In this document: positions 20,211 through 64,000 of the stretch, in pieces
Numbering within the stretch: position 1 is the stretch's first letter
Layout: each line of letters starts with the position of its first letter
NCBI GenBank assembly: GCA_964484255.1
Contig: CAZAEH010000004.1
Location: 2,282 to 66,281 of the forward strand
Reading direction: 5' to 3'
Length of the DNA: 64,000 nucleotides
Origin: an uncultured Planctomycetia bacterium
Lineage (GTDB): Bacteria > Omnitrophota > Gorgyraeia > Pluralincolimonadales > Pluralincolimonadaceae
Notes under the pieces: generated by a model
Seen by the model: the letters and a program-made list of their open reading frames with translations, nothing else
What the model was told of the DNA's origin: nothing
Databases searched by the model: none
Translations under genes and position numbers: made by a program

Positions 20211-20547
20211 TTATGGTAAAACCTCTCTGAAAACCCTTATTGCCTTGCCCCCAGCCGACAGTGCAGATCACCTGCCTTAAATTATCCACGGAGGTGGTCG
20301 AGACCGTCTGGGTCCAGGTATATGCGGGGTCTGTGAATGTGCCTGAGGTGGTGCCGAGACTGGGAAAACCGCTGTTCCTTATCTGTTCAAAATGCTCGTG
20401 GGCGAATATCGTGGCCTGGGTAGCACTTACCGACCTTCGGGCGGAATCGAAACCTATCGGGAAAAGGGACAATATCCCCACAAGCCCTATCGCGAGGATA
20501 GAAAGAGAGATGATTATTTCGATGAGGGTAAATCCGCTCCTATTCAT
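20194..20547 (-). CDS. GspI-like minor pseudopilin
   Basis: 117 aa. MNRSGFTLIEIIISLSILAIGL. Confidence 0.6.
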   Translation of the reverse strand: MNRSGFTLIEIIISLSILAIGLVGILSLFPIGFDSARRSVSATQATIFAHEHFEQIRNSGFPSLGTTSGTFTDPAYTWTQTVSTTSVDNLRQVICTVGWGQGNKGFQRGFTINVADR

Positions 20548-20574
20548 GCTGCGCCCTCGCTTTTACCGGCCCGG

Positions 20575-21075
20575 CTATCTGGTCCAGTTCGTTACGTTGT
20601 CCGTGCCTCCGACCACCCTGTCCGGACCATACGAAATAATATCGACATAATAGCCGCCGTGTCCCGAAGTATCAGGATTAGTGTAAGTTAACGCCGTCCC
20701 CCACGCATCTATTATCGTATTACCTCCGGTAAGGTCACCGTCCTTGAACGTCATGTACGGCCCCGACCAGTTGGTGGTGGGAAGGGAATAAGAAGTTACG
20801 GTACCTATAGTATAGGTACCCGTATTGCTGACCAGGCAGTTGTAAAGGTTAGTGTTGCCGCTCGAGGGATAACCGCCGAGGTCAGCCTGGAACATCCCAA
20901 TGCCGGTCTCTATCGCGGCTATCATCGCTTTGGTGCGGGCTATCATCGCCTTCTGCCTTGCGGTCTGGGCGGCAGCCGCCACCAATCCCGCTAACAGCAA
21001 TATTATAGTCATGACGACCACGAGTTCTATTATGGTGAAACCTTTCTTCCTGTTCGCCCTAACCATATTAACCAC
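20575..21075 (-). CDS. gspG: GspG-like major pseudopilin
   Basis: 166 aa. KGFTIIELVVVMTIILLLAGL, then a GspG-like body (PYMTFKDG...DAWG). Confidence 0.7.
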   Translation of the reverse strand: MVNMVRANRKKGFTIIELVVVMTIILLLAGLVAAAAQTARQKAMIARTKAMIAAIETGIGMFQADLGGYPSSGNTNLYNCLVSNTGTYTIGTVTSYSLPTTNWSGPYMTFKDGDLTGGNTIIDAWGTALTYTNPDTSGHGGYYVDIISYGPDRVVGGTDNVTNWTR

Positions 21076-22333
21076 CTCCTAAAGCGGTTACGAGCTGGAA
21101 GAGCGGCATGAACATGGCTATTACTATGAAACCGACTATCATACCCAGCCCGATGATCAAGAACGGCTCGAGCAACGACATCAAGCCCGTTACCGTGACA
21201 TCTACTTCTTCATCATATACATCGGCAACCTTCAGCAGCATCTGGTCCAAGGCACCCGTCTCCTCCCCTACGGAGATCATGTTAACGGCCATCGCAGGGA
21301 AGAGCCCTGCCTTAAGCAAGGGCTTGGCTATCGTCTCTCCTTCCCTTACCGCATCATGAACCACCACTATAGAACGGGCCATCGCCTCATTGCCGGTAGT
21401 GTCCTTTGAGACCATAAGGGACTGCAGTATAGGAACACCGCTTGATAACAGTGTCCCGAGCGTCCTCGAGAAACGGGCAATGGCTATCTTCCTCAACAAC
21501 TGACCCATTACCGGTATCTCCAACTTACCCTTGTCGATCAGGAGCTTTGTCACGGGCAAACGATATAGGACATTCCATAGGACGATGAGCAATACTATCG
21601 AGCCTATACCGATATACCATTTGCTCCTTGCAAAATCGCTGACCACGAGCAGGACTTTGGTCATTACCGGCAGCTCCACGTCCATTTCTTTGAATATCTG
21701 CAAAAATTTGGGGACGATAAACGTTATAAGAAAACCCAGGACCGATAGAGCCATGGTAAGAACGAGGGCGGGATAGACCATGGCCGATTTTATCCTTCCC
21801 TCCAACCTTTGGGATTTTTCGGCAAACTCCGCAAGACGGGTAAGCACCACTTCGAGCACACCGCCGGCCTCGCCCGCTTTTACCGTATTTACATACAGAG
21901 GGGGGAACGCCTTGGGAAACTTCGAAAGCGCTTCGGAAAAGGAGCTGCCGCCTTCGACCTGCTCTGCAAGCCCGCGGATAGTAGTCTTCAATACCCCCGA
22001 CTTCTCCTGCCTTTCGAGGACATATAAGGCGCGGACAAGGGGCAGACCGGAACCTATAAGGGTAGCCAGCTGCCTGGTAAACACGGTTATCTGCTTGGCG
22101 CTGACACCTCCGAACGACAAACTTAAAACTGACTTCGCCGGCTTGGGGCCGCCGGGTATCTCCCTGCTCCTCAAGGGAGAACCGTTACCTTTATCCTTCT
22201 CTTCGTTGATACTTATGGGATAAAGGCCTTTCTGGCGCATCTGTTCCATGGCATCCTGGTTTCCGGAAGCCTCGAGCCTGCCCTTGCTCTCCTTGCCGTC
22301 CTTGTCTATAGCGACGTAATTGAAGATGGCCAT
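21068..22333 (-). CDS. gspF: Type II secretion / type IV pilus inner-membrane platform protein
   Basis: 421 aa. Two GspF repeats and three TM segments. Confidence 0.85.
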   Translation of the reverse strand: MAIFNYVAIDKDGKESKGRLEASGNQDAMEQMRQKGLYPISINEEKDKGNGSPLRSREIPGGPKPAKSVLSLSFGGVSAKQITVFTRQLATLIGSGLPLVRALYVLERQEKSGVLKTTIRGLAEQVEGGSSFSEALSKFPKAFPPLYVNTVKAGEAGGVLEVVLTRLAEFAEKSQRLEGRIKSAMVYPALVLTMALSVLGFLITFIVPKFLQIFKEMDVELPVMTKVLLVVSDFARSKWYIGIGSIVLLIVLWNVLYRLPVTKLLIDKGKLEIPVMGQLLRKIAIARFSRTLGTLLSSGVPILQSLMVSKDTTGNEAMARSIVVVHDAVREGETIAKPLLKAGLFPAMAVNMISVGEETGALDQMLLKVADVYDEEVDVTVTGLMSLLEPFLIIGLGMIVGFIVIAMFMPLFQLVTALGGG

Positions 22334-22403
22334 TAATTTTATCTCCCCCTTCTATATTATAAATATACCTTATACAAAGGTCTTTGTCAAAGGCTCAAAA
22401 AAA

Positions 22404-24137
22404 CTACATTACGGAAGATTGAGCCTCCTTTAGCACCTCTTCTGCGGTCGTGACCCCTGCGTTTACCTTTTCCAAGCCGTCGTCCAGGAGCGTCTTCATG
22501 CCGTTCTCAATAGCAGCTTTCCTTATAAGGGCTGTATGCGCCTTTTCTATTACGAGCTGCCTTATCTTTTCATTTAATACAAGGAGTTCATATATACCCG
22601 TCCTGCCTTTATAGCCCGAATTGTTGCATTTCACGCAACCCACGCCCCTGTAAAATTTCCTGTTCTTTGCTTCTTCGGGAGCCAGCCCCAGGTCGGATAT
22701 CAGTTCGGGTTCCGGAGTATACTCTTCCTTGCAGTTCTGGCATATCTTGCGCACGAGCCTCTGGGCAAGCACCGCTTCAAGCGTGGAAGTAACAAGGAAT
22801 GGCTCGATGCCCATATCGATCAACCTCGTGATCGTGCCTGCCGCGTCGTTGGTATGCAGCGTCGAGAAGACCAAATGTCCGGTAAGGGACGCCTGTATCG
22901 CTATCTGTGCGGTCTCGGCATCCCTTATCTCACCTACCATTATTATATCGGGGTCCTGCCTTAATATATGGCGAAGGGACGTGGCGAATGTAAGGCCTAT
23001 CTTGGCATTTATCGGGACCTGTATTACACCCTTAAGGTCGTACTCGACAGGATCCTCGGTAGTGATCACCTTATACTCTATCTTGTTTATCTCCCTCATA
23101 CATCCGTACAATGTAGTGGTCTTGCCGCAACCGGTCGGCCCGGTAGTAAGGAATATGCCGTTTGGCTTGATTATTATATTCCTTATCCTCTTCTTGGTTT
23201 CATCCAGCATTCCGACCTCATCTATAGAAAGGCTGACCGTCGTCCTGTCGAGGACCCTCATGACGATGCTCTCGCCGAATATCGTAGGCAAAGTAGAGAT
23301 ACGCAGGTCCACGCTCTTGCCTTCTATTGTGACCATGATACGTCCGTCCTGCGGAAGGCGGCGTTCGGCTATATCAAGGTTCGCCATGACCTTTATCCTG
23401 GATGACAGGCCAAGGCTCAAGTTCTTAGGAGGCCTGGCCACCTCATAAAGGACGCCGTCCACCCTGTACCTTATCCTGTAATCTTGTTCGAAAGGCTCGA
23501 AATGTATGTCTGATGCCTTCTCCCTGACCCCCTGGAGAAGTATCATATTAAGAAGCTTGATGACAGGGGCGCGTGAAGCAAGCTCCTGGAGTGTAGCTAT
23601 GTCATTTATCTCTTCCCCCTCAGGAACAAGCTCCATCTTCTCGCCAAAGACGCCGAGGACATCCTGTATCGTTTCGCCCTCGGAACCGTAATACCTTTGT
23701 ATCTGCTCTTTTATCTCCTCATCACTGGCAACCACACCCTTTATGTTCATTCCGAGGGTGAACCTCAGGTCGTCAAAAGCGGCTACATTTAGCGGGTCCG
23801 CTATGGCTATTGAAAGCTGGTTGCTTTCAACAGAAACAGGAAGTATGGTATATATCTTCGCAACGGAAGCCGGGACCTTGTCAATTACCTCCTTCGGGAT
23901 CTTCATGTCCTTGAGCCTGACCACAGAGAACCCGGACCGCGCCCCAAGCAGCTGCAGGATATCGTCTTCCTTGACAATGCCCATATCGACGAATATCCTT
24001 CCAAGAAGTTTGCCGGTAAGCTTTTGCTCTTCCAGCGCCTGCTCGAGCTGGCGTTCGTTTATCATCCCCTTCTCAAGGAGAAGCTGGCCTATCCGCTTGT
24101 ATTTTTCCTGTTTAGGTTGTTCTTTTTCGGCAGCCAT
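22404..24137 (-). CDS. gspE: GspE/PilB-family secretion ATPase with MshEN-type N-terminal domain
   Basis: Walker A GPTGCGKTT, Asp box, tetracysteine CQNC...CVKCNNSGY. N-terminal RIGQLLLEKGMINERQLEQALEEQ-KLTGK-LLGRIFVDMGIVKEDDILQLL matches the tandem 24-residue MshEN motif with a 5-residue spacer. Start set at Met7 (GGAG RBS upstream); the track ORF extends to 24155. Confidence 0.9.
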   Translation of the reverse strand: MAAEKEQPKQEKYKRIGQLLLEKGMINERQLEQALEEQKLTGKLLGRIFVDMGIVKEDDILQLLGARSGFSVVRLKDMKIPKEVIDKVPASVAKIYTILPVSVESNQLSIAIADPLNVAAFDDLRFTLGMNIKGVVASDEEIKEQIQRYYGSEGETIQDVLGVFGEKMELVPEGEEINDIATLQELASRAPVIKLLNMILLQGVREKASDIHFEPFEQDYRIRYRVDGVLYEVARPPKNLSLGLSSRIKVMANLDIAERRLPQDGRIMVTIEGKSVDLRISTLPTIFGESIVMRVLDRTTVSLSIDEVGMLDETKKRIRNIIIKPNGIFLTTGPTGCGKTTTLYGCMREINKIEYKVITTEDPVEYDLKGVIQVPINAKIGLTFATSLRHILRQDPDIIMVGEIRDAETAQIAIQASLTGHLVFSTLHTNDAAGTITRLIDMGIEPFLVTSTLEAVLAQRLVRKICQNCKEEYTPEPELISDLGLAPEEAKNRKFYRGVGCVKCNNSGYKGRTGIYELLVLNEKIRQLVIEKAHTALIRKAAIENGMKTLLDDGLEKVNAGVTTAEEVLKEAQSSVM

Positions 24138-24144
24138 GCTTACG

Positions 24145-25857
24145 CTACTCCTCATAGCCGTGCGTGATGCGCACGACCTCAGAAATTGTCGTTATGCCTT
24201 CCCTTACCTTATTAAGGCCGTCTTCCCTCAGGAGCTTCATGCCGTTGCGGCGCGCGGCTTCCCTTATCTCTTGCGAAGAAAGTCTCTTCACTATCATTTC
24301 GCGTATTTCGTCATTGTTGACCAGAAGCTCAAATATTCCGATCCTTCCCTTATACCCGGTATAATTACACATCTTGCATCCCTTGCCCCTGAACAGCTGC
24401 ATTCCTTCAACGGCTTTTGGATCGGCTGATTTTTGCCCGAGGACATATAACTCTTCATATGAAGGTTTATACGGCTCCTTGCAGTTCTGGCATATCTTGC
24501 GCACAAGCCTCTGGGCCATTACCGCCTGGACCGTAGAACTGACGAGATATGACTTGACACCCATATCTATTAGTCGGGTAAATGCGCCGGCGGCATCGTT
24601 GGTATGCAGAGTACTGAACAGCAGATGTCCCGTAAGGGCGGCTTGTATGGCTATAGATGCGGTCTCAAAATCGCGGATCTCGCCGACCATTATTACATCG
24701 GGCGCCTGCCTGAGCATAGTCCTCAAGCCCGAGGCAAAGGTAAGGCCTATCGAAGGCCGTACATGGACCTGGTTTATACCCGATATCTGGTACTCGACCG
24801 GGTCCTCTACCGTTATGAGTTTTTTGTTGGGTTTATTTATATAGCTAAGGGCCGCGTAAAGAGTCGTCGTCTTTCCGCTTCCGGTAGGGCCCGTAATAAG
24901 CAACATGCCGTACGGCAGGTGTATAAGCTTCTCGAAAGTCTCGGCATCCTCATGGAGGAATCCGAGTTCAGCGAGGCCAAGCATAAAACTGGATTTGTCG
25001 AGGATCCTCATGACCACGCTCTCACCATATATAGCCGGAAGTGTAGAGACGCGCAGGTCAAGGTCCTTGCCCATGCCTTGTATCCTGATCCTGCCGTCCT
25101 GCGGAAGGCGCTTCTCGGCTATATTCATGCCCGCCATGATCTTAAGGCGGCTCAATATGGAAGGTTGCAGCTGTTTTGGGGGGCCGGGAACTTCATGCAA
25201 GACGCCGTCTATCCTGTACCTTACGCGGAACTTGTCTTCAAGCGGCTCAACATGTATGTCGGAAGCGCGGTTCTTTACGGCTTCGGATATTATCTGGGTA
25301 ACAAGCTTTATTATGGGTGCCTCGTCTTTTTCCTCTTCTTTCACGACTTCAGCCGCGACACCTTTAAAAGACACCGTCGCGTTATCATTCTGTTTCTGCG
25401 CAACGGCATCCAGTATGTTCTTGCTTCCTCCATAATGTTTCTCAAGCGCTATATTTATGTTCGACTCGGAGCTAAGCACAAAATCAAGCTTCGAACCTGT
25501 AAACGTTTCAAGGTTATCCTGTGCCAGAAGGTTAATGGGGTCATCCGTCGCAACGGTCAGGATATCATTCTCGAATTTTATGGGAACTAACTTGTGGCGG
25601 TATGCTAATGCCGGTTTTACCTTGGAAAGGATATCGAAGGGGATCTCCATATCAAATATAGGGGTGCGCACAAGGGAGAATTCCTGGATTATAAGGTCCC
25701 TGAGCTGTTCGGTCTGGAGGAACCCTATACCGTTGAGGATATCGGAAAGGCGGTTTCCGGAATCAAGCTGCGATTTTAGGACACTCCTTAATTGGGATTC
25801 GTCAAGTATCCCTATCGACTTGAGGTATTCGCCTATAAGCCTGCTTCTATTGATCAA
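24145..25857 (-). CDS. Second tandem GspE/PilB-family ATPase (TTG start as called by the track)
   Basis: 570 aa. GPTGSGKTT, CQNCKEPY...CKMCNYTGY. N-terminal LIGEYLKSIGILDESQLRSVLKSQ-LDSGN-RLSDILNGIGFLQTEQLRDLI is MshEN-like. Confidence 0.9.
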   Translation of the reverse strand: MINRSRLIGEYLKSIGILDESQLRSVLKSQLDSGNRLSDILNGIGFLQTEQLRDLIIQEFSLVRTPIFDMEIPFDILSKVKPALAYRHKLVPIKFENDILTVATDDPINLLAQDNLETFTGSKLDFVLSSESNINIALEKHYGGSKNILDAVAQKQNDNATVSFKGVAAEVVKEEEKDEAPIIKLVTQIISEAVKNRASDIHVEPLEDKFRVRYRIDGVLHEVPGPPKQLQPSILSRLKIMAGMNIAEKRLPQDGRIRIQGMGKDLDLRVSTLPAIYGESVVMRILDKSSFMLGLAELGFLHEDAETFEKLIHLPYGMLLITGPTGSGKTTTLYAALSYINKPNKKLITVEDPVEYQISGINQVHVRPSIGLTFASGLRTMLRQAPDVIMVGEIRDFETASIAIQAALTGHLLFSTLHTNDAAGAFTRLIDMGVKSYLVSSTVQAVMAQRLVRKICQNCKEPYKPSYEELYVLGQKSADPKAVEGMQLFRGKGCKMCNYTGYKGRIGIFELLVNNDEIREMIVKRLSSQEIREAARRNGMKLLREDGLNKVREGITTISEVVRITHGYEE

Positions 25858-54477: not shown

Positions 54478-55404
54478 TCATTGCCTTATAGCCAATCCTA
54501 TACATACCGCCATCTGGCCCGAGACTTCTTTAAGCGCCTTGGAATCCACTTTTGGCGAAATAACCAGTTTGGCCGTAGGGTCCCACACTACCATCTCTAA
54601 CCCGAAAGCCTGCTTAAGCCTTTCGTTGACTGCCGTATCCTTGGCCCCTCCGCCGCTTATATATATCCCGTCTATTCCCTTCCCAAACTGGTTCTCGTAA
54701 TAATCGAAAGACAGCCTTATCTGGGTCTCAAGGGCATCTATACTCTTGATATCAACCGGGATATCACGCGCAAAGTTAAGCGTTTCATCCTTCAATATAC
54801 AAACGTTCGTCATGCTGGCGCCTATATTGAGCAAAGCTACCGTCCTGTCCTTCCCGGCACCCGCATTATTGAAAACAAATGAGTTCGTTACAGCTATAGA
54901 ATCACAATCAACGGCTTCGGGCGCTATGCCTGCGTCGTTCATATAAGTTATGTATTCGCCCACGAGGTCCTTCTTTGCGGCTACTATAAGCACTTTTACC
55001 TTACCGCCCTCAACCTTGCCGCCGATTATCTGCGCGTCTATAAACACTTCATTTATACCGAAAGGTATGTATTTCTCGGCTTCAAATTGCAGCGCGGAAT
55101 GCAATTCATCGGAACTCATCTTTGGGAAAAGCACCTGCCTGACAACTACGGATTGGCCTGAGACCGATATCACCGCTTTCTGTATCTTCGTCTCCTGCTT
55201 AGCCATAAAACGCTTAAGGGCAGCAGCAACGCTTTCCCTGGAACGCTCTCCCTCTATCTGTTCAATGGAAAAACGGTCGATCTGCATGACACCCGTCTTT
55301 TGTTTTGAGATGACAACGGACTTTATTGAGGAGGTCCCGATATCCAGCGCGACCTTATTCCTTGCCGCGCCCAGGTTCAAGAAGGGGATTTTTATCTCTT
55401 TCAT
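54478..55404 (-). CDS. pilM: Pilus assembly protein PilM (actin-like ATPase fold)
   Basis: 308 aa. ALDIGTSSIKSVVIS. Confidence 0.8.
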   Translation of the reverse strand: MKEIKIPFLNLGAARNKVALDIGTSSIKSVVISKQKTGVMQIDRFSIEQIEGERSRESVAAALKRFMAKQETKIQKAVISVSGQSVVVRQVLFPKMSSDELHSALQFEAEKYIPFGINEVFIDAQIIGGKVEGGKVKVLIVAAKKDLVGEYITYMNDAGIAPEAVDCDSIAVTNSFVFNNAGAGKDRTVALLNIGASMTNVCILKDETLNFARDIPVDIKSIDALETQIRLSFDYYENQFGKGIDGIYISGGGAKDTAVNERLKQAFGLEMVVWDPTAKLVISPKVDSKALKEVSGQMAVCIGLAIRQ

Positions 55405-55407
55405 GTC

Positions 55408-55866
55408 CTATTCGATCGGCGTATCGGTGCTACCGGCCCTATTCCCGGCCTTAGCCCTTATTATACCCGTCTCATCGGTAAAAAAATACCTGTTGCCTGT
55501 CTTGCCAGGAGAAACAGGATCTGCGTTCAGATCAAAGTTCTCGGAGTCTGAAAATGAATAATCGAACTGATAGCCTTGCTTTTTCCCTTGGACAGCCAAG
55601 ACTGAATCAAGATACGGAGGATCGGATTTCGGCGCCGCAAGCTCATCAAGAGACGCCGGATAAGTATGGGGGTTGCTGTTCGTATAATAGCTTTGGCAGG
55701 CGGTTTGTATCGTCTTGCATGATACAATAGCGGAAGCCTCATTGGCATTTATCCTGGAAGTCAAGAAAATAGGTATACCAATGGCCGCCAAAGTTGAAAT
55801 GATGGCGATGACGATCATTATTTCAACCAAAGTAAAACCGTAGTTTGTATATTTTTCTCTCGCCAT
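55408..55866 (-). CDS. pilA: Type IV pilin (PilA-like)
   Basis: 152 aa. Class III signal YGFTLVEIMIVIAIISTLAAIGIP. C-terminal region paralogous to the pilins at 58700 and 59237. Confidence 0.75.
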   Translation of the reverse strand: MAREKYTNYGFTLVEIMIVIAIISTLAAIGIPIFLTSRINANEASAIVSCKTIQTACQSYYTNSNPHTYPASLDELAAPKSDPPYLDSVLAVQGKKQGYQFDYSFSDSENFDLNADPVSPGKTGNRYFFTDETGIIRAKAGNRAGSTDTPIE

Positions 55867-55874
55867 TGGATTTT

Positions 55875-55903
55875 AGTTTATATTTTTTACGCAAAAAAGT
55901 CAA
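55875..55903 (-). promoter_or_regulatory. Candidate promoter for pilA-pilMNOPQ
   Basis: Minus-strand TTGACT (55903..55898), 17-nt spacer, TAAACT (55880..55875), which ends 8 nt before the ATG. There is no SD. Confidence 0.35.
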
Positions 55904-55929
55904 GAAAAATTCCGAATTTTCACTAATCG

Positions 55930-55958
55930 TTGATATTGAAGCCGCGTTGTAGTATACT
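55930..55958 (+). promoter_or_regulatory. Candidate promoter for the divergent minor-pilin operon
   Basis: TTGATA (55930-55935), 17-nt spacer, TATACT (55953-55958). RBS GGGAGG 55965-55970. ATG at 55979. Confidence 0.4.
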
Positions 55959-55978
55959 TTTACAGGGAGGATAATAAG

Positions 55979-56461
55979 ATGTTTACCTCATGCGGGAAAA
56001 GAGGTTTCACCCTTCTGGAGTTGATGCTCTCTGCCGCAATACTTATCGTGGCGATAGGAGGGCTTTTATCGGCCTATATATTGTGCTTTCATCTTACCGA
56101 AACCGCAAAAAACACTACCCTTGCCACTAATGCCATCCAGCTTAAGCTGGAAGAAATCCGGGATACGGATTTTGATGAGATAATAACGGACTACGACCAC
56201 ACTACTTTCACAGTCAATGGTTTCAGCGCCGGGCAGGCTATCGGGTCCATAACCGTTGAAAGCATCACTACGGACCTGTTGATGGTAACCGTAAGCGTCT
56301 GTTGGAGACAGAGCGGAAACAGGATAATGGGCGAAGATAACGGCGGGGGCGGGGGCGTAGCTCTCAGCGGATATCTGGAAGGTACCGAAGATACTAATGC
56401 AAACGGTATTGTGGATTCGCCGGCAATGATCTCCACCCTAATGATCAACAGAGGTACATGA
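55979..56461 (+). CDS. pilV: Minor pilin, PilV-like
   Basis: 160 aa. KRGFTLLELMLSAAILIVAIGGLL. Confidence 0.6.
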   Translation: MFTSCGKRGFTLLELMLSAAILIVAIGGLLSAYILCFHLTETAKNTTLATNAIQLKLEEIRDTDFDEIITDYDHTTFTVNGFSAGQAIGSITVESITTDLLMVTVSVCWRQSGNRIMGEDNGGGGGVALSGYLEGTEDTNANGIVDSPAMISTLMINRGT

Positions 56462-57027
56462 CCATGAAAGCTGTTGGCACACGAAGACATGGTTTAAGCC
56501 TCGTAGAGGTAATGATAACGGTCGCTATAATATCCGTGATAGGAGGTGCTTTGGCCTATTTCCTTATAATAGGCTCTTCATCTTGGCGGAGCGGCGATGC
56601 CGAAATCCAGGCGAACCAGGAAGCCAGGATCGGGATGATGACCATGATAAAGGAGATAAGACAGGCCAAGGACGGAAATATAAAAACGACGTCGGGGACC
56701 TTGTACGCCGACAATACGGCCTATGACAATATAATGTTCGTGATCAGTTCGGATACGGATGGTGACGGAGATACGATAGATACGACCGGGGCGCTCGAAT
56801 GGTCGGCACCAATATCGTATTATCTCTCCGGGACACAGCTGGTAAGGCAGTCCGAAAGCAGCACAAAAATTGTGGCAAACCACGTTACGGCCTTACAGTT
56901 CGCGATAGTCGTGGACACGCTTAAAGGTACCCGCGTACTAAACGTTACCATCCAGACCGTAAAGACAAGCGCCGACAGACGGCAGATGACGTCAACCCTT
57001 ACCAGCAGCGTAAACATAAGGAACTAA
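56458..57027 (+). CDS. pilW: Minor pilin, PilW/GspJ-like
   Basis: 189 aa. HGLSLVEVMITVAIISVIGGAL. Confidence 0.6.
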   Translation: MTMKAVGTRRHGLSLVEVMITVAIISVIGGALAYFLIIGSSSWRSGDAEIQANQEARIGMMTMIKEIRQAKDGNIKTTSGTLYADNTAYDNIMFVISSDTDGDGDTIDTTGALEWSAPISYYLSGTQLVRQSESSTKIVANHVTALQFAIVVDTLKGTRVLNVTIQTVKTSADRRQMTSTLTSSVNIRN

Positions 57028-57031
57028 AAAG

Positions 57032-58303
57032 ATGAAAAACAGAAAAGGTTTCATGCTGATATTCTCTTACGCTGTGGTCAGTGTCATAGTAATACTGGTA
57101 GCGGCTTATGTGGCGCGCAGCATAAACGAGATAAGGATGGCCCAACGCGAGAAGAATTCCGCAGCAGCGCTTTATGCGGCGGAAGCAGGCATAGATTACG
57201 CTTTCGACTGGCTTAAATCGCAGGGTACTCCCCCCTCGGGAACTTCGTCTTTCAGCGTGACCGGCGGCCCGTCCCTTACTACCGGGACCTATTCTGTGAT
57301 GATCGATCCCAACGACTCAAATCCTACGTCATATTCCAAGAGATATAATATAATAGCGACGGGCCAGTGCGAGGATTCCACCAGGACGGTGAACCTGGAA
57401 GTCACGCAGGATAACTTTTCCAGACATGTATGGTTTACGGATTCCGAGACCTATGACGGGGCATCGGTATGGTTCGTTACCAATGACAGCCTTAACGGGC
57501 CCGTCCATACCAACGGCAGGTTCAACATTTCCGGAGATCCGTGGTTCGGGGACGTTACGAGCGAAAGCGGTTCCTCGATCAACTACATGCACGGAGGCCC
57601 GCCCAACGATAATCCCACTTTCGAGGAAGGCATAGACTTCAATGTCGAATCCAGCGAAATGCCTACAAGGGCAACCAGTCTCAGGAACGCCGCGTCAAGC
57701 GGAGGCATGAGACTTTACGGACAGACCACGATAGTGCTTAACTCAAACGGAACGATGAATGTCACGAATTCCAACGCCGGGTACAACAACACTAATATGG
57801 CCCTTCCGGCTAACGGAGCTATATTCGTCGAGAACAGGATAGTCAACAGGAGGCTTGTGGAATACGGCAACGTGACCGTAAGCGGGACCCTCGATGGACG
57901 GCTGTCGATAGGCGCCAACAATAATATCAATATCGGAGGCAATATTACTTACAGTGATGCCTCCGGCGACGATATGCTCGGCCTGATAGCCGAACAGGAC
58001 CTGGTCATACTCCAGAGTTCCTGTCCCACTAACGGGAACCTTACAATACAGGCCAGCATGATGGCAATGTCGGACGCCTTCTATCTCGAAAACTGGACTT
58101 CATCCATGAAGGGGACATTGAATGTCCTGGGAGGTATAATCCAGAAAGAGCGCGGACCGGTCGGCACCTTCAACACCTACACAAATTCTAAGGCAAGCGG
58201 TTTTACGAAGAACTACGTATACGATGAGAGGCTTAGAACGACTCCTCCTCCTTTCTTCCCCACAACCGAAGACTTTATACCCGTATCCTGGAGAGAACAA
58301 TGA
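57032..58303 (+). CDS. pilX: Minor pilin, PilX-like (PilX_N domain)
   Basis: 423 aa. MKNRKGFMLIFSYAVVSVIVILVAAYVARSINEIRMAQREKNSAAALYAAEAG. Confidence 0.6.
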   Translation: MKNRKGFMLIFSYAVVSVIVILVAAYVARSINEIRMAQREKNSAAALYAAEAGIDYAFDWLKSQGTPPSGTSSFSVTGGPSLTTGTYSVMIDPNDSNPTSYSKRYNIIATGQCEDSTRTVNLEVTQDNFSRHVWFTDSETYDGASVWFVTNDSLNGPVHTNGRFNISGDPWFGDVTSESGSSINYMHGGPPNDNPTFEEGIDFNVESSEMPTRATSLRNAASSGGMRLYGQTTIVLNSNGTMNVTNSNAGYNNTNMALPANGAIFVENRIVNRRLVEYGNVTVSGTLDGRLSIGANNNINIGGNITYSDASGDDMLGLIAEQDLVILQSSCPTNGNLTIQASMMAMSDAFYLENWTSSMKGTLNVLGGIIQKERGPVGTFNTYTNSKASGFTKNYVYDERLRTTPPPFFPTTEDFIPVSWREQ

Positions 58304-58686
58304 CAAAGAACCGAATAATAATAGCCGGAGCCTTGTTGATACTGGGCATACTCATCGCCATGCCTTTATTGAAACCGGCGAATGGACCTATCGTCCCCGA
58401 AAATAAACAGGCGGTCCAGGAAACTGTGCCGCAGGCAGGCGTCTTTGAATTACCGCCTGACAGTGCAAGGGACACCAGAGAACCGGTCATGACTGAGACC
58501 GCGACAACCGTAACGGTAAGTGAAATGCCAAGCAAAAAAACCCCCAGAAAGGCAAGACATATTGAGGAAGATCCACAGGACAAGGGTTACGATTCAATAG
58601 ACCCGGGCCTCGTGCCTAACCCGCCTAAATCACCTTCACCCGAGATACTAAGGAACATGCAAAAGAAGGGTATAGTCCTTTACTGA
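58300..58686 (+). CDS. Small N-terminally anchored, Pro-rich membrane protein of unknown function
   Basis: 128 aa. TM IIIAGALLILGILIAM then a low-complexity P/E/T-rich tail. It is the last gene of the minor-pilin operon. Confidence 0.35.
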   Translation: MTKNRIIIAGALLILGILIAMPLLKPANGPIVPENKQAVQETVPQAGVFELPPDSARDTREPVMTETATTVTVSEMPSKKTPRKARHIEEDPQDKGYDSIDPGLVPNPPKSPSPEILRNMQKKGIVLY

Positions 58687-58699
58687 AAAGCGCCCGCGT

Positions 58700-59134
58700 T
58701 CATTCTATTGGATTGCCGGATGCGTCATCGACCCTTATCACGCCCGATTCATCGACGAAGAATACCCTTACACCCGTTATATTGGGAGTTACAGGCGCAG
58801 CCGTGCACGTATACTGGTTAGCGCTAACCAAAGCATAGGTAAACGTATAACCCTGTTTCGTGCCGCTTCCGAGCGTGGAATCTATATAAGGAGGGTTATC
58901 GCTGCTTAATGTCGCCAGGTCCGGCGGATATGTAGAAGGGTTCTGCATGGCACGGTAGCTTTCACATGCCGTACTGATGGTCCTCATGGATGCTATGGCC
59001 GAAGATTCATTAGCGTTCGAGCGCGCCCTTATAAAACCGGGTATGGCTATAACGGCCATAATGGTAATGATCGAGACGACTATCATTATCTCTACCAGGG
59101 TAAAGCCTTTCCTGGGGCAGATCCTGTATTCCAT
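58700..59134 (-). CDS. pilA: Type IV pilin paralog 1
   Basis: 144 aa. MEYRICPRKG/FTLVEIMIVVSIITIMAVIAIP. Shares KQGYTFTYALVSANQYTCTAAPVT with paralog 2. Upstream has TTGACA, 17-nt spacer, TAAACT ending 8 nt before the ATG, and no SD. Confidence 0.75.
   Translation of the reverse strand: MEYRICPRKGFTLVEIMIVVSIITIMAVIAIPGFIRARSNANESSAIASMRTISTACESYRAMQNPSTYPPDLATLSSDNPPYIDSTLGSGTKQGYTFTYALVSANQYTCTAAPVTPNITGVRVFFVDESGVIRVDDASGNPIE
58788..58866. repeat. 79-nt block identical to 59325..59403 inside the two pilin paralogs
   Basis: gttacaggcgcagccgtgcacgtatactggttagcgctaaccaaagcataggtaaacgtataaccctgtttcgtgccgc is present in both genes. Flanking coding sequence is diverged. Confidence 0.7.
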
Positions 59135-59175
59135 AGGAAATTAGTTTATATCCGCGCTGGCAAAATGTCAATATG

Positions 59176-59212
59176 CGAAAAAAGGGCGGGAATTCTCTTC
59201 CCGCCCTTTTAC
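59176..59212 (-). terminator. Rho-independent terminator downstream of pilin paralog 2
   Basis: Perfect 11-bp GC-rich stem aagggcgggaa/ttcccgccctt (59182-59192 / 59198-59208) with loop ttctc. On the minus transcript it is followed by UUUUUU. A 4-T tail on the plus side gives it some bidirectional potential. Confidence 0.6.
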
Positions 59213-59236
59213 GTTAAACCTTTTTACGCCCGAGTA

Positions 59237-59668
59237 TTATTCGATCGGGTTGCCTGCGGCGTTGTTAAGTCTTAAAACACCCGATTCATCGACGAAGAAC
59301 GTCCTCGAACCGGTGACGTTCGCCGTTACAGGCGCAGCCGTGCACGTATACTGGTTAGCGCTAACCAAAGCATAGGTAAACGTATAACCCTGTTTCGTGC
59401 CGCCCGCCAAAGTCGCATCGATGTACGGGGGAGTAGCCGATCCCAAAGCCGCCAGGTTGGCCGGATATGTTACCGGGCTCTGTGCAGCTCTGAAGCTTTC
59501 GCAAGCCGTGCTGATGGTACGAAGCGAGGCTATGGCAGCCGCTTCGTTAGCGTTAAGCCTTGCGCGTAGTAAGTTGGGTATCGCTATCGCCGCTAATAGA
59601 GCTATAATTGCGACTACGATCATGATTTCAACGAGCGTAAAACCCTTTCTCCTTACTAATCTACTCAT
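59237..59668 (-). CDS. pilA: Type IV pilin paralog 2 (likely the most highly expressed pilin)
   Basis: 143 aa. MSRLVRRKG/FTLVEIMIVVAIIALLAAIAIP. Strong SD AAAGGAGGGG. It is flanked by a near-consensus promoter and a hairpin terminator. Confidence 0.8.
   Translation of the reverse strand: MSRLVRRKGFTLVEIMIVVAIIALLAAIAIPNLLRARLNANEAAAIASLRTISTACESFRAAQSPVTYPANLAALGSATPPYIDATLAGGTKQGYTFTYALVSANQYTCTAAPVTANVTGSRTFFVDESGVLRLNNAAGNPIE
59325..59403. repeat. Second copy of the 79-nt identical block (see 58788..58866)
   Basis: Identical to 58788..58866. Confidence 0.7.
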
Positions 59669-59720
59669 CTCCGTTCCCCTCCTTTCGTCCTTATCAGGAC
59701 TATTGTTATCCGTTATTTAC

Positions 59721-59748
59721 AGTATAACATAAAAGACATTTGTGTCAA
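59721..59748 (-). promoter_or_regulatory. Strong candidate promoter with extended -10 upstream of pilin paralog 2
   Basis: Minus-strand TTGACA (59748..59743), 16-nt spacer ending in TG, TATACT (59726..59721), i.e. TGtTATACT. About 50-nt leader to the SD. Confidence 0.5.
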
Positions 59749-59753
59749 GAACT

Positions 59754-60965
59754 CTATTTAGCGACCACCTGAATCAGTTTAACTATGGGCAGGAACATGG
59801 ACACCACTATCCCTCCAACGACTATCCCGAGAAAAGCGATTATGAGCGGTTCTATAAGACTCGTCAGGCCGGAGACCGCGGCGTCAACTTCACTCTCGTA
59901 GAAGTCCGCGATCTTACTGAGCATCTCCTCGAGCTTACCAGTCTGCTCTCCTACCGATATCATCCTTGTCACCATAGGCGGGAATACCTTGCTTGCCGCC
60001 AAAGGCTGGGCTATGGATTCACCCTCTTTAATGCTCAGTTTCGTCTTTATTACGGCCATCTCGATGACCTTGTTGCCGGACGTCTTGCCGACTATCTCCA
60101 GCGCGGTCAATATGGATACGCCGCTCTTCTGGAGCGTGGAAAGCGTCCTTGCGAACCTTGCGACCGCCACCTTCCGCAACAATGGTCCGATCACGGGGAT
60201 CTTGAGCAGCATCCTGTCCCAGGCCAGCGCACCCTTCTCTGTCTTTATCAACTTAGAAAGAATGAATATGAATGCGCAGAGCACGATGATCACAATTATT
60301 ATCCATTTCCTTAACATGTCGGATATGGCTATAAGTATAAGTGTCGGCACGGGGAGGGAAACACCTATCGTAGAGAATATGTTCTTGAACGTAGGCACCA
60401 CAAAGATTATCAGGAACATCGTGATCGCTATGGCCATGAATATTACTACCGCCGGGTATATCAGGCTGGATTTCACCTTCCTGACAAGCGCAATGGTCTT
60501 TTCCATGTATATAGCGACCCTGTCGAGTATCTCATCGAGGTCGCCGCTTGACTCCCCGGCGCGGACCATGTTTATGAAGAACGGCGAAAAGACGTTCGGC
60601 TGCTTGCTTAAAGATTCCGAAAGGCTCAGACCCCCTTCCACGTTGTCCCGGACTTTCTTGACTATATTCTTGAATCCCGCCCTCTCCATCTGGTCCTGTA
60701 GCGCGTCGAGCGCGCCGACAAGGGGGATGCCCGCGTCAACCATGGTGGCAAGCTGCCTCGAGAATATAACAAGGTCCTCAGGCGATGCCTTGTCGCCCCC
60801 GATCGACATCGAGGTCTTCGCCTTCTCCCTGACCTCCTCGATCGATATGATGGTAAGCTCTTTCTGCCTAAGGACATCGACAAGGGATGCGCTGTTAGCC
60901 GAATCCATGACTCCGCTAACGGCTTTGCCGTCCTTGTCCCTGGCAGTATACCTGAAATTGGGCAA
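59754..60965 (-). CDS. pilC: Type IV pilus platform protein PilC (GspF family)
   Basis: 403 aa. Two GspF repeats and three TM segments. Confidence 0.85.
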   Translation of the reverse strand: MPNFRYTARDKDGKAVSGVMDSANSASLVDVLRQKELTIISIEEVREKAKTSMSIGGDKASPEDLVIFSRQLATMVDAGIPLVGALDALQDQMERAGFKNIVKKVRDNVEGGLSLSESLSKQPNVFSPFFINMVRAGESSGDLDEILDRVAIYMEKTIALVRKVKSSLIYPAVVIFMAIAITMFLIIFVVPTFKNIFSTIGVSLPVPTLILIAISDMLRKWIIIVIIVLCAFIFILSKLIKTEKGALAWDRMLLKIPVIGPLLRKVAVARFARTLSTLQKSGVSILTALEIVGKTSGNKVIEMAVIKTKLSIKEGESIAQPLAASKVFPPMVTRMISVGEQTGKLEEMLSKIADFYESEVDAAVSGLTSLIEPLIIAFLGIVVGGIVVSMFLPIVKLIQVVAK

Positions 60966-60966
60966 T

Positions 60967-62679
60967 TTATTCCTCCGAGGTAACCCTCAAGACTTCTTCA
61001 ACGGTAGTATTCCCCAGGGCAAGGTTCTCAAGCGCCGCAGCCCTAAGCGTAAGCATACCTTTCTCCTTTACAGCATAATCTTTTATCTTATCGCTATGCA
61101 CCCTGTCAAGTATCATCTCTTTTATCTTATCATCTATTATAAGGTTTTCCAGGATGGCAAACCTGCCGAAATACCCGGTCTTGTTGCATTTTGCGCAGCC
61201 TTTCCCCTGGTAGAACACGGCTTTGCCTTTTTCAGTATAGCCTATCCGGTCCAAAACCTCTTTTTTTATCTCCACGGCTTCTTTGCAATTCGGGCAGACG
61301 CGGCGCATGAGCCTTTGCGCGCAGATAAAGACCACGCTGGAAGCGACAAGGAACGGTTCGACGCCCATGTCTATAAGCCTTGTTATAGCGCTTGAGGCAT
61401 CGTTGGTATGGAGCGTGGACAATAACAGCTGTCCGGTCAGTGAAGCTTTTATGGCAATATCCGCCGTCTCAAAGTCGCGGATCTCGCCTACCATCACTAT
61501 GTCCGGCGCCTGGCGCAGGAATGCGCGGAGACCGTTCGCAAATGTCAGCCCTATCTCGGGTTTGACCTGCACCTGCGTTATACCCATCAGCTCATACTCT
61601 ATCGGGTCTTCTATCGTTACTATGTTCTTCTCGGGCGTATTCAGGATATTGAGTATGGAATAAAGCGTGGTAGACTTTCCGCTTCCCGTAGGTCCCGTGA
61701 CAAGGAACATGCCGTAAGGTTTGGATATGGCCTCCTTGAGCTCCTCAAGAGTCTTGGGCAAAAAACCCAATTTCTCTGGCGAGACCTTAATACTCTGTTT
61801 ATCGAGGACTCGGCATACGACCTTCTCCCCGTGGACCAGCGGAAGCGTCGAGACGCGGAAATCTATTTCTCTTTCATCCATCCTGACCTTAAACCTGCCG
61901 TCCTGCGGGAGGCGCCATTCCGTTATATCCATGTCAGACATGATCTTGAGCCTGGTCAATACCGCCGCCTGGTTCGACTTAGGCAGATGCGAGAACTCGG
62001 TAAGAGCGCCGTCTATCCTGTAGCGTATACGCATATCCTTCTCGAGGGGTTCTACATGTATATCGGAAGCCCTCCTCTTAAGCGCCTCACTGACAATGAC
62101 ATCGACCATCTTGAGTATAGGCGCTTTCTGGCTTTCAATGGCAAGCTCGGATACATCGAACCTCTCCTCGTCCTCGTTCACGGACATGACCTCGACGTCC
62201 TCTGAACCGACATCCTGGATGATCTTATTTATTGAAAGGGTCTCTTCCCCGTAATAGGCGGATATTGCATCCCTTACGTCCTTATCCGTGGCAAGGACAG
62301 GGTCTATCTCGTATTTAGTCAGTATCTTGAGGTCATCCAGCGCGAATATGTCCAGCGGATCCGACATGGCAACGGTCATCCTGCTGCCTATCTTGGATAC
62401 TGGTATCACATGATAAAGCCTGGTAATCTTTTCCGGGACAAGGGATATTATCTCCTTGTCTATCTTATACTTGGACAGGTTTATTGGGGTTATACCGAGT
62501 TCCTGGCTGAATATGGAAAGCAGCTCGTTCTCGTTGGCCAGGCCTTTTTCCACGAGTATCTTAGTAAGACTGCCCCCTTTTTCGTGCTGGGTCTTTATGG
62601 CCTCGTCGAGCTTCTCCTTGGTGACGACACCCTTATTTACCAGGACCTCTGCTATCTTATCCCTAAGGCTTTTTGCCAT
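60967..62679 (-). CDS. pilB: PilB/GspE-family pilus assembly ATPase
   Basis: Start taken at MAKSLRDK (track ORF extends to 62742). GPTGSGKST, CPNCKEAV...CAKCNKTGY. N-terminal KIAEVLVNKGVVTKEKLDEAIKTQ is an MshEN-like motif. Confidence 0.9.
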   Translation of the reverse strand: MAKSLRDKIAEVLVNKGVVTKEKLDEAIKTQHEKGGSLTKILVEKGLANENELLSIFSQELGITPINLSKYKIDKEIISLVPEKITRLYHVIPVSKIGSRMTVAMSDPLDIFALDDLKILTKYEIDPVLATDKDVRDAISAYYGEETLSINKIIQDVGSEDVEVMSVNEDEERFDVSELAIESQKAPILKMVDVIVSEALKRRASDIHVEPLEKDMRIRYRIDGALTEFSHLPKSNQAAVLTRLKIMSDMDITEWRLPQDGRFKVRMDEREIDFRVSTLPLVHGEKVVCRVLDKQSIKVSPEKLGFLPKTLEELKEAISKPYGMFLVTGPTGSGKSTTLYSILNILNTPEKNIVTIEDPIEYELMGITQVQVKPEIGLTFANGLRAFLRQAPDIVMVGEIRDFETADIAIKASLTGQLLLSTLHTNDASSAITRLIDMGVEPFLVASSVVFICAQRLMRRVCPNCKEAVEIKKEVLDRIGYTEKGKAVFYQGKGCAKCNKTGYFGRFAILENLIIDDKIKEMILDRVHSDKIKDYAVKEKGMLTLRAAALENLALGNTTVEEVLRVTSEE

Positions 62680-62683
62680 GGCC

Positions 62684-64000
62684 TTATTCCTGCTCCCCAA
62701 GCGTAACGCGAAGGATCTCTTCCAATGTAGTAACGCCTTCAAAGACCTTTCTCAATCCTGACTCCCTTAAAGTGACAAGCCCCGCCCTCCTGGCCGCTTC
62801 ATATATCTGGTTCTCGTGGGCCCTCTTTGCTACAAGCTCCCTCAACTCCGCATTCATCGCAACGGCTTCGATAAGTCCTATCCTGCCCCTGAAACCAGTC
62901 TTGAAACAGTAGTCGCATCCTTTTCCTTTATAGAATTTTGCATCGACCCCTGCGGGTATCTTTATCTTCAACTTTTCGAGCATGGACTTGTGTATCTCCT
63001 GCGGCTCCTTGCAGCGAGGGCACACCCTTCTGACGAGCCGCTGCGCGGCGACAAGCGCAACAGACGAGCTGATAAGAAAAGGCTCGACCCCCATATTGAC
63101 CAGCCTCATTATGACACCGGTAGCGGTATTAGTGTGTAAGGTACTCAAGACCAGGTGGCCCGTAAGGGCTGCTTTTATGGCTATATCAACGGTCTCGAGG
63201 TCCCTGATCTCCCCTACCATTATGATGTTTGGGTCCTGCCTGAGTATAGAACGCAAACAGGCCGCGTACGTAAGACCTATCTCGGTATTTATATTGACCT
63301 GGTTTATCCCCGGCAAAAGATACTCCACCGGGTCCTCGACCGTAACAAAATTCTTTTCGGGGGCATCTATGCTTTTAAGTATGGAGTAGAGTGTTGTCGT
63401 CTTGCCCGAACCGGCCGGGCCGCAGACAAGTATCATGCCATGCGGCCTCTTCGAGGCCTTCTTTAACTCCTCGAGGGGCTCCTTTTCGAACCCGAGTTTC
63501 TCTATATCAAGCATAGCCTGGGATTTATCGAGGATCCTGAGAGCAACCTTCTCGCCGAAAGCGGTAGGTACAGTCGACACCCTGAAGTCAACCTCCCTGT
63601 CCTGCACCCTTATCTTGAACCTGCCGTCCTGAGGAAGGCGGCGCTCCGCTATATTAAGGTTGGACATTACTTTTATCCTTGATATCATCGCCGATTGTAT
63701 GGAGCGCGGCAATGACTGCGCTTCCCTGAAGATCCCGTCAACCTTATACCTTATCCTCAAGCGGTCTTCCATTGGTTCGATAAGTATGTCGCTCGCGCGG
63801 GACTTTGTGGCATCAAGGACGACCGCCGACGTCAGCTTGACCACGGGAGTGTCTATGGCCGCCTCCTTGAGGTCGGACGAGCTCTCGTCGTCCTTCTTCA
63901 TGGATATGAGCTCTATATTCGTCTCCTTGACCAGGTCCTCGATGGCAGACGTCGCCTGGCTTCCATAATGCTGCTCGATGGCCGCTTTTATATCGTCGGA
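62684..64000 (-). CDS. Fourth GspE/PilB-family ATPase; N-terminus runs off the window end
   Basis: GPAGSGKTT, CPRCKEPQ...CDYCFKTGF. The frame stays open upstream of the track Met to 64000 (..SDDIKAAIEQHYGSQATSAIEDLVKETNIELISMKKDD.., which looks like the end of an N1 domain). Confidence 0.85.
   Translation of the reverse strand, partial: SDDIKAAIEQHYGSQATSAIEDLVKETNIELISMKKDDESSSDLKEAAIDTPVVKLTSAVVLDATKSRASDILIEPMEDRLRIRYKVDGIFREAQSLPRSIQSAMISRIKVMSNLNIAERRLPQDGRFKIRVQDREVDFRVSTVPTAFGEKVALRILDKSQAMLDIEKLGFEKEPLEELKKASKRPHGMILVCGPAGSGKTTTLYSILKSIDAPEKNFVTVEDPVEYLLPGINQVNINTEIGLTYAACLRSILRQDPNIIMVGEIRDLETVDIAIKAALTGHLVLSTLHTNTATGVIMRLVNMGVEPFLISSSVALVAAQRLVRRVCPRCKEPQEIHKSMLEKLKIKIPAGVDAKFYKGKGCDYCFKTGFRGRIGLIEAVAMNAELRELVAKRAHENQIYEAARRAGLVTLRESGLRKVFEGVTTLEEILRVTLGEQE

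Follow-up and report, generated by a model that had tools for sequence, protein, structure and literature searches.

A 79-nt identical block and leaderless-type promoters in tandem type IVa pilin genes of an uncultured Omnitrophota bacterium

Introduction

How do two adjacent genes that have diverged over most of their length come to share one perfectly identical internal block, and are such genes expressed alike? The question is raised by a tandem pair of type IV pilin genes, here called P1 and P2, on a 64,000-nucleotide (nt) stretch of DNA from an uncultured Omnitrophota bacterium (GenBank assembly GCA_964484255.1, contig CAZAEH010000004.1, positions 2,282 to 66,281), which is referred to below as the window and supplies the coordinates of its genes. 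An earlier note on this DNA, made from its letters, had read a shared block of 79 nt as the trace of gene conversion or recombination between pilin cassettes. It had also pointed to a third pilin gene, pilA3, with an upstream arrangement like that of P1, and had proposed that P1 and pilA3 may be leaderless and that the locus may support pilin switching. The genes and the two copies of the block are as follows.

59237 to 59668, minus strand: P2, a major-type type IVa prepilin of 143 amino acids (aa), leader MSRLVRRKG then FTLVE (open reading frame (ORF), PF07963, TIGR02532)
58700 to 59134, minus strand: P1, the second pilin paralogue, 144 aa, leader MEYRICPRKG then FTLVE (ORF; without ribosome-binding site)
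55408 to 55866, minus strand: pilA3, the third pilin gene, 152 aa (ORF, PF07963; without ribosome-binding site)
59325 to 59403, minus strand: P2 copy of the block, donor (exact match to the P1 copy)
58788 to 58866, minus strand: P1 copy of the block, converted tract (exact match to the P2 copy)

A block of identity between diverged paralogues

The 79 nt are the longest exact run common to P1 and P2 and code for (G)TKQGYTFTYALVSANQYTCTAAPV(T); judged from the structural model of P2, the P1 copy takes in β-strands 1 and 2 of the globular head together with Cys109. Outside the block, the two genes are 63.5% identical at the nucleotide level and saturated at synonymous sites. Where the proteins have the same amino acid, the codon is also the same in 25 of 26 cases inside the block compared with 32 of 77 outside (Fisher p = 4e-7). 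The longest run obtained in 100,000 shuffles of codon columns was 52, and none reached 79, which confirms the perfect block that the earlier note had described in otherwise diverged genes. An identity tract of this kind, longer than background divergence allows, is what gene conversion leaves behind. No third copy was found in the 64 kb window with up to three mismatches allowed.

The loci and contigs compared with the window are numbered L001 to L134; among them, L002 to L004 are strains, and L086 to L092 together with L008 represent related species. The tandem pair with both block copies was found in five independently assembled JGI samples (3300020812, 3300029288, 3300029799, 3300033889 and 3300020813), and the incomplete contigs of ENA ERZ27247363 and Logan SRR15237810 are consistent with it. 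In all, at least six independent assemblies contain both copies. The earlier note had named an assembly collapse as the finding that would overturn its reading, and an artefact of assembly or consensus calling could arise from collapsed reads of diverged copies or from a chimeric contig. Some assemblies do break in or near the repeat, L128 beginning inside the P2 block and L134 between P2 and P1; the break in L128 is what is expected for a true repeat. However, both copies were recovered with distinct flanks from at least five samples and by different pipelines, and they fall into two haplotypes told apart by one position that is changed in both copies together, namely T/T (window, L001, L124-L127) and C/C (L002, L085). 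In addition, the repeat is shorter than the usual short-read length, as we assume it to be, so that single reads would span the block. A collapse is thus excluded for practical purposes, and we take the probability of any such artefact to be close to nil.

Direction and recurrence of gene conversion

Comparison with orthologues strongly supports an origin of the block by non-reciprocal homologous recombination, i.e., gene conversion, in which P2 overwrote P1. Outside the block, P1 of the window is nearest to P1 of L086 and L087 (p-distance 0.27, versus 0.38-0.40 to P2 genes), so the duplication is older than these species. Inside the block, the same gene lies only 7-10 nt from P2 of L086 and L087 versus 23-26 nt from their P1, which identifies P2 as the donor; for comparison, the P2 block of the window is 10 nt from its P2 orthologue in L086 and 7 nt from that in L087. 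The tract therefore groups the paralogues of one genome, whereas its flanks group orthologues. The P2-type peptide TFTYALVSANQYTCT is the common state of the P2 orthologues.

Substitutions inside the block are common to both copies within a strain and differ between strains. L002 carries a synonymous GTT to GTC change in both copies, and the partial contig of L003 has GTC in its complete P2 copy. T occupies this position in the two copies of the window strain and of four further assemblies. At the synonymous rates of the remaining gene sequence, and without conversion since the strain split, about 3.5 differences between the P1 and P2 blocks would be expected in each strain; none was observed in either, for which the joint Poisson probability is ~0.0008. 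Between strains, the P1 block has one synonymous difference, where 5.2 would be predicted if it evolved as fast as the remaining P1; its rate is that of P2. Both the missing differences and the slow P1 block indicate that conversion recurred.

Seven related species with the same P2-P1 arrangement were compared in this respect. No comparable identical run was found in L086, L087, L088, L089, L090 or L008 (p 0.10-0.97), and the P2-P1 pair of L092 has merely a 16-nt run (p ~0.02). The absence of the block from related species, the concerted evolution across strains and the tree conflict with P2 as donor all agree with the gene-conversion reading of the earlier note. Apart from the block, P1 contains a second candidate tract:

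58743 to 58762, minus strand: second short conversion tract in P1, 20 nt (exact match to P2 59280-59299)

This tract is specific to the window strain, and the case for it is made by a run-length permutation test (p ~0.02) and by outgroup polarity, according to which P1 of the window has three derived changes relative to P1 of L002, L086 and L087, all of them to the P2 state. A more distant P1 orthologue, that of L134 (GCA_030154545.1), has a P2-like block of the YAFTYTLVSTNQY type, which suggests that this segment was overwritten over a longer period. Two points weigh against this reconstruction. Taken by itself, the clustering of strain differences in the 20-nt tract does not reach significance (p = 0.34), and the age of the first conversion is uncertain, since the P2 partner of L134 is not on its contig and no protein with that block occurred among the protein matches.

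Measured against the block, the P1 orthologues of the seven related species are different at 22-29 of the 79 positions, and 22-28 block positions separate P1 from P2 within these species. Orthologues that vary freely in this region leave no nucleotide-level constraint there, which makes it highly improbable that the block is held identical by selection on the nucleotides themselves, be it as an RNA structure, a target of a small or antisense RNA, a protein-binding site or a site of site-specific recombination. Such selection could draw on two features of the block. Its interior forms a perfect 16-nt palindrome, TGGTTAGCGCTAACCA (58815-58830 and 59352-59367), and both copies have on the plus strand a weak antisense promoter-like match, GTTACA-16-TATACT (58788-58815 and 59325-59352; 9/12), which is probably due to chance. 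However, a single-nucleotide polymorphism of strain L002 falls inside the palindrome and breaks it, so that the palindrome is not conserved and any role in break or conversion initiation would be speculation. The tree conflict, moreover, is specific to the block. As a candidate RNA element, the block was rejected after folding (z = -0.33 for the sense and +0.30 for the antisense strand); Rfam gave no match at E up to 1 over 55000-60200.

Long identical tracts were also seen in other tandem pilin pairs of Omnitrophota and Verrucomicrobiota, for instance 99 nt in L043 (3007/3577), 88 nt in L083 and 68 nt in L047, mostly in the N-terminal helix. In L021 (2248/2965), L070, L073, L074, L043 and L083, the identity extends over anything from an N-terminal block of 99 nt to entire duplicated genes, which are identical throughout and arranged alternately. 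These tracts mark the phenomenon as common in this group of phyla, and concerted evolution of pilin arrays seems to be widespread in both Omnitrophota and Verrucomicrobiota.

Pilin identity and selection

All three genes code for class III signal peptides as found in type IV pilins, namely MSRLVRRKG/FTLVEIM in P2, MEYRICPRKG/FTLVEIM in P1 and MAREKYTNYG/FTLVEIM in pilA3, with the slash marking the end of the leader. The pilins score 29-34 bits with PF07963 (cut-off 21.2) and 30-34 bits with TIGR02532 (cut-off 16.3). The AlphaFold model of P2, with a predicted local distance difference test score of 84.5, has a helix at residues 12-62 and four strands between residues 95 and 135, as in the pilin fold. 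The best PDB matches of this model are the type IV pilins 4d40, 4noa (probability 0.99) and 5g2f (0.80), with E-values of only 0.04-0.5 and sequence identity <20%.

Orthologues of P1 occur in at least nine other loci. The mature proteins of both P1 and P2 are under strong purifying selection, the ratio of non-synonymous to synonymous substitution rates (dN/dS) being 0.01-0.1, and 0.03-0.08 for P1.

The cleaved leader of P1 is nearly wholly different among close strains and species: MEYRICPRKG in the window (59105-59134), MKPEFSARRG in L002 (939-968), MKPKFCRSKG in L134 (56-85) and MDSRDSGIAG in L086 (2501-2530). The P2 leader is conserved, and the mature P1 proteins of the window strain and L002 are ~97% identical. 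The variability of the P1 leader may be relevant to leaderless translation, for which these codons would be the first contact of the ribosome on the mRNA.

Expression signals of P2

The region around P2 contains the signals listed here.

59721 to 59748, minus strand: P2 promoter TTGACA-16-TGtTATACT with an extended -10 (consensus scan 11/12 plus upstream TG)
59669 to 59714, minus strand: predicted 5' untranslated region of P2, ~46 nt (start placed from the position of the -10)
59180 to 59210, minus strand: intrinsic terminator after P2, GGGCGGGAA-GAGAA-TTCCCGCCC with an A/U-pair extension and then a U run (folding)

The same promoter is present in L088, L089 and strains L002-L004. The predicted leader holds a ribosome-binding site, GGAGGGG (59676-59682), and a 5-bp hairpin (59687-59700, -7.3 kcal/mol) in which the sole strain difference is at loop position 59693. 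The terminator has a centroid energy of -22.6 kcal/mol (z = -3.2), and none of 200 shuffles was as stable; in L002, a compensatory change from G-C to A-T (59205, 59185) has occurred in its stem. It was missed by the consensus scan and is clear by folding, the likely reason for the miss being that A/U pairs on either side lengthen the stem so that it reaches into the T run. Scan and folding together corroborate the near-consensus extended -10 promoter, strong Shine-Dalgarno sequence and strong terminator that had been ascribed to this gene.

Synonymous divergence (dS) was compared between orthologues of the window, L002, L086-L092 and L008. In every species pair, P2 has accumulated 3-4 times less synonymous divergence than P1 (for example 0.10 versus 0.32 and 0.67 versus 3.2). 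The lower values suggest strong codon-level constraint on a major pilin and would fit P2 as a highly expressed one. What tells against this is that recombination between strains could have lowered the dS of P2 instead.

Promoters abutting the start codons of P1 and pilA3

The intergenic regions before P1 and pilA3 contain a different type of promoter:

59143 to 59171, minus strand: P1 promoter TTGACA-17-TAAACT, ending 8 nt before the ATG (consensus scan 10/12)
55875 to 55903, minus strand: pilA3 promoter TTGACT-17-TAAACT, ending 8 nt before the ATG (consensus scan 9/12)

In both genes, the ATG is the sole possible start, with a stop codon two codons upstream, and a ribosome-binding site is missing. 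Only 45 nt separate the terminator hairpin of P2 from the start of P1. The upstream strings ATATAAACTAATTTCCTATG of P1 and ATATAAACTAAAATCCAATG of pilA3 form a 21-nt direct repeat with 86% identity. The arrangement that the earlier note had seen before both genes thus holds in its main elements, TTGAC(A/T)-17-TAAACT without a Shine-Dalgarno sequence, while the motif formula of the note misstates a single base of pilA3.

The spacing between promoter and start codon is conserved beyond the window. The hexamers of the P1 promoter are intact in L002 and L134 despite a changed spacer, and P1-type spacing is also found in the P1 orthologues of L086, L087, L089-L092 and L008. The pilA3-type spacing of 7-8 nt recurs in L096, L006, L011, L093, L097, L098, L103, L107 and others. 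In alignments anchored on the -10, the hexamers of both the P1-type and pilA3-type families are conserved and the spacers and discriminators are variable. We surveyed 137 distinct upstream regions of Omnitrophota pilin genes, 37 without and 100 with a ribosome-binding site. A TANNNT hexamer ending 7-8 nt before the ATG is present in 22 of the 37 regions without such a site, 19 of which also have a TTGAC-like -35 at a spacer of 16-18 nt, compared with no region among the 100 others that has a -10 within 4-8 nt of the start. Within the window, leaderless-type spacing is confined to P1 and pilA3 (2 of 54 ORFs).

A Pribnow box 6-8 nt from the start codon is the signature of bacterial leaderless genes (PMC6028130). 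P1 and pilA3 combine this distance with the lack of a ribosome-binding site and with a position as first gene. On these grounds, a leader of 0-2 nt on their mRNAs appears to be the most likely state, and we hold it with reasonable confidence. As for the suggestion that these copies are leaderless, the promoter-ATG spacing is upheld by its conservation in many Omnitrophota pilin loci and by its match to the published signature, and leaderless translation itself stays a probable consequence of it. It must be set against this reading that many of the loci with such spacing are orthologues, so that the counts are not independent events, and that a distance of 8 nt is at the long end of the range and would allow transcripts to start 1-2 nt upstream of the A. 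Ends of transcript-derived contigs that might mark the start of P1 or pilA3 were uninformative, as the contigs in the public assemblies run through the promoters.

The two promoters are the sole sigma-70-like promoters on the correct strand in their intergenic regions, both abut the ATG, and that of P1 directly follows a strong terminator. These observations argue against other start sites with a normal leader. From such sites, the two genes would be translated without a ribosome-binding site by A/U-rich, S1-dependent initiation; alternatively, P1 could be largely silent. About two thirds of the ORFs in the window have ribosome-binding-site-like motifs, and the remaining third, mostly operon-internal, have no clear site, which lends some weight to such a route, as does the A/T-rich stretch right before the ATG. 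However, species that differ in the bases in between keep the -35/17/-10/7-8/ATG spacing, all genes of this kind start with ATG, and purifying selection shows that P1 is expressed. We therefore regard a non-leaderless or silent state as unlikely.

In the compared loci, gene callers mis-start such pilin genes without a ribosome-binding site. A TTG two codons upstream was chosen in L002 (933-1373, P0051), and in L086 and L087 (2480) an ATG inside the promoter spacer. The only start common to the window, L002, L086 and L087 is the ATG 8 nt after the -10 hexamer.

Pilin variation

The single expressed pilE gene of Neisseria receives sequence from many silent pilS cassettes, which lack promoters and are truncated at the 5' end; the process is initiated at a G-quadruplex (G4) and diversifies the pilin. 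As in that system, conversion here affects the coding sequence of a type IV pilin and leaves short conserved blocks within variable sequence. Unlike in Neisseria, the expressed major pilin gene would be the donor, the recipient is complete, promoter-bearing and conserved, and the outcome is homogenisation.

The proposed pilin switching or antigenic variation was not borne out. No silent, promoterless, 5'-truncated cassettes were found in the 64 kb window, in which all pilin genes are full-length and have promoters, and no G4 motif (four runs of at least three G) occurs in 55000-60200. P2 shows a dN/dS of 0.00-0.10 in place of diversification and acts as donor, not as recipient. P1 as a variant cassette and the block as a switching site, in a programmed variation of the Neisseria pilE/pilS or Moraxella type, would be compatible with the recurrence of conversion and with the hypervariable P1 leader, and the 79-nt direct repeats, 537 nt apart, could yield a fusion of the N-terminal part of P2 to the C-terminal part of P1 by deletion. 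Such chimeric proteins were, however, absent from the 120 closest protein clusters. Strong purifying selection acts on P1, a full-length gene with a conserved promoter of its own, and the transfer from the expressed major pilin into P1 erases differences and makes the copies more alike. Programmed variation is accordingly very improbable. Inverted or other repeats were limited to the paralogue pair, the shared promoter-start segment and the internal 16-nt palindrome, and no search aimed at an invertase gene was made.

Proposed scheme and related systems

The explanation that we prefer joins a major pilin P2, a functional P1, recurrent conversion from P2 to P1 and leaderless P1 and pilA3 mRNAs, and as a whole we judge it quite probable. 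In this scheme, P2 would be the highly expressed major pilin gene with its own promoter, leader, ribosome-binding site and terminator, and P1 an old, conserved and functional paralogue transcribed from its own promoter directly after the P2 terminator. P1 and pilA3 would give leaderless or near-leaderless mRNAs, initiated by the leaderless route, with a level and regulation of expression unlike those of P2. The segment of P1 that codes for β1-β2 was overwritten by P2 more than once in the lineage; the block was re-homogenised after the strains diverged, and the 20-nt tract was added in the window strain. The comparisons show the identity of the block, the direction of conversion and its recurrence, the promoter spacing with its conservation, and the purifying selection on both proteins; for the transcription starts, leaderless translation, relative expression levels and role of P1 in the pilus, we infer these states from sequence.

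The tufA and tufB genes of Salmonella and Escherichia coli are the classic example of RecA-dependent gene conversion and concerted evolution. The pilin pair resembles them in the non-reciprocal transfer within a genome, the identical tracts in diverged copies and the strain-specific substitutions common to both copies. It differs in that the tract is short (79 nt + 20 nt) and internal with the rest saturated at synonymous sites, and in that the two genes lie side by side as direct repeats, each with expression signals of its own type. Tandem pilA pairs are found, for instance, in Pseudomonas stutzeri (pilAI/pilAII), Synechocystis (pilA1/pilA2) and Xylella (pilA1/pilA2), where the second gene is expressed separately and more weakly and has an accessory or modulatory role; here as well, the gene right after that of the major pilin codes for another protein resembling a major pilin. 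To our knowledge, neither leaderless-type spacing nor a conversion tract like the one documented here has been described for such pairs. In the literature searched, we found nothing directly relevant on leaderless pilins, on leaderless genes in Omnitrophota or on conversion between pilA paralogues.

In the group C genomes of GeneMarkS-2 (Actinobacteria and Deinococcus-Thermus), 25-50% of operons are leaderless (PMC6028130). P1 and pilA3 are like the leaderless genes of this group in the distance of 6-8 nt between -10 and ATG, the lack of a ribosome-binding site and the first position in the operon. Unlike in group C, the spacing is specific to a gene family, within the window to pilins, and is not genome-wide.

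A broader idea, which we put forward tentatively and think rather doubtful, is that Omnitrophota keep dedicated accessory pilin genes of the P1 and pilA3 types, the pilA3 type at the head of the pilMNOPQ operon, that are expressed as leaderless mRNAs, with conversion preserving co-assembly. If this were true, pilus composition and the dosage of the assembly machinery would be set at translation initiation. Leaderless pilins would be favoured when leaderless translation is relatively enhanced, e.g., in slow growth or host attachment, and recurrent conversion from the major pilin would keep the accessory β1-β2 core fit for co-assembly in the same fibre. Type IVa pili are nearly universal in Omnitrophota and have been linked to predatory or parasitic lifestyles; attachment to host or prey cells is regarded as their function (PMC10066038).

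Gene conversion and leaderless initiation are themselves well known, and understanding of them is refined here, not changed. The locus offers a clean, population-supported case of recurrent conversion between tandem pilin paralogues with donor, recipient and tract borders resolved. It also leads to the prediction that two conserved Omnitrophota pilin families are leaderless and the major pilin depends on a ribosome-binding site. For annotation, the consequence is that the starts called for such pilin genes are prone to error.

Genomic context and additional observations

The nearest homologues of the pilins come almost solely from Omnitrophota metagenome-assembled genomes. Two further features flank the pair:

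59754 to 63901, minus strand: upstream machinery of the pilus, namely two PilB-like ATPases and a PilC-like platform protein (NCBIfam, Pfam)
55930 to 58686, plus strand: divergent minor-pilin operon with genes at 55979-56461, 56458-57027, 57032-58303 and 58300-58686, all four preceded by ribosome-binding sites

On the minus strand, the machinery genes are followed by P2 and P1. Past P1 lie the plus-strand minor-pilin genes (55979-58686), preceded by a promoter TTGATA-17-TATACT at 55930-55958 (+), and then, on the minus strand, pilA3, pilM, pilN, pilO, pilP and pilQ. PilC, GspF and PilB are the top-scoring NCBIfam families for the proteins of 59754-63901, all of them under the curated equivalog cut-offs, while PilM (153.8, cut-off 133) and PilQ (285.2, cut-off 284.35) exceed theirs. 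Pfam matches on the matching contig were T2SSE, T2SSF, PilM_2 and PilO. PilB-like ATPases, a PilC-like protein, PilMNOP and the PilQ secretin are thus clustered with pilins, as is typical of type IVa pili, and the region represents the pilin part of such a gene cluster. Only 3 nt lie between the stop codon of pilA3 and the start of pilM (55404). Judging from this, pilA3 is the probable head of a pilA3-pilMNOPQ operon, the whole of which is probably driven by the leaderless-type pilA3 promoter.

Elsewhere in the window, at 19461-25857, a second trio of prepilin-type genes stands beside large ORFs that, from their position and size, may code for GspF- and GspE-type proteins; the set could belong to another system, either for type II secretion or like a type IV pilus. 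Among the compared loci, two pilA3-type genes (L102 3148-3696 and L113 789-1337) code for 182-aa products behind the usual leaderless-type promoter. After MKSKRG, ~35 residues of these products depart from the FTLVE motif, which could reflect an insertion or a frameshifted variant.

In the Verrucomicrobiota pilin loci L066-L084, 15 of 35 pilin genes are preceded by a motif TAACCCGCCTGTTG-N5-6-GTTCAC(G/A)CCGC. It matches no Rfam family and ends 14-25 nt upstream of the pilin ATG; the stretch after it is rich in purines and contains no ribosome-binding site. This motif may be a lineage-specific promoter or an element of the 5' untranslated region.

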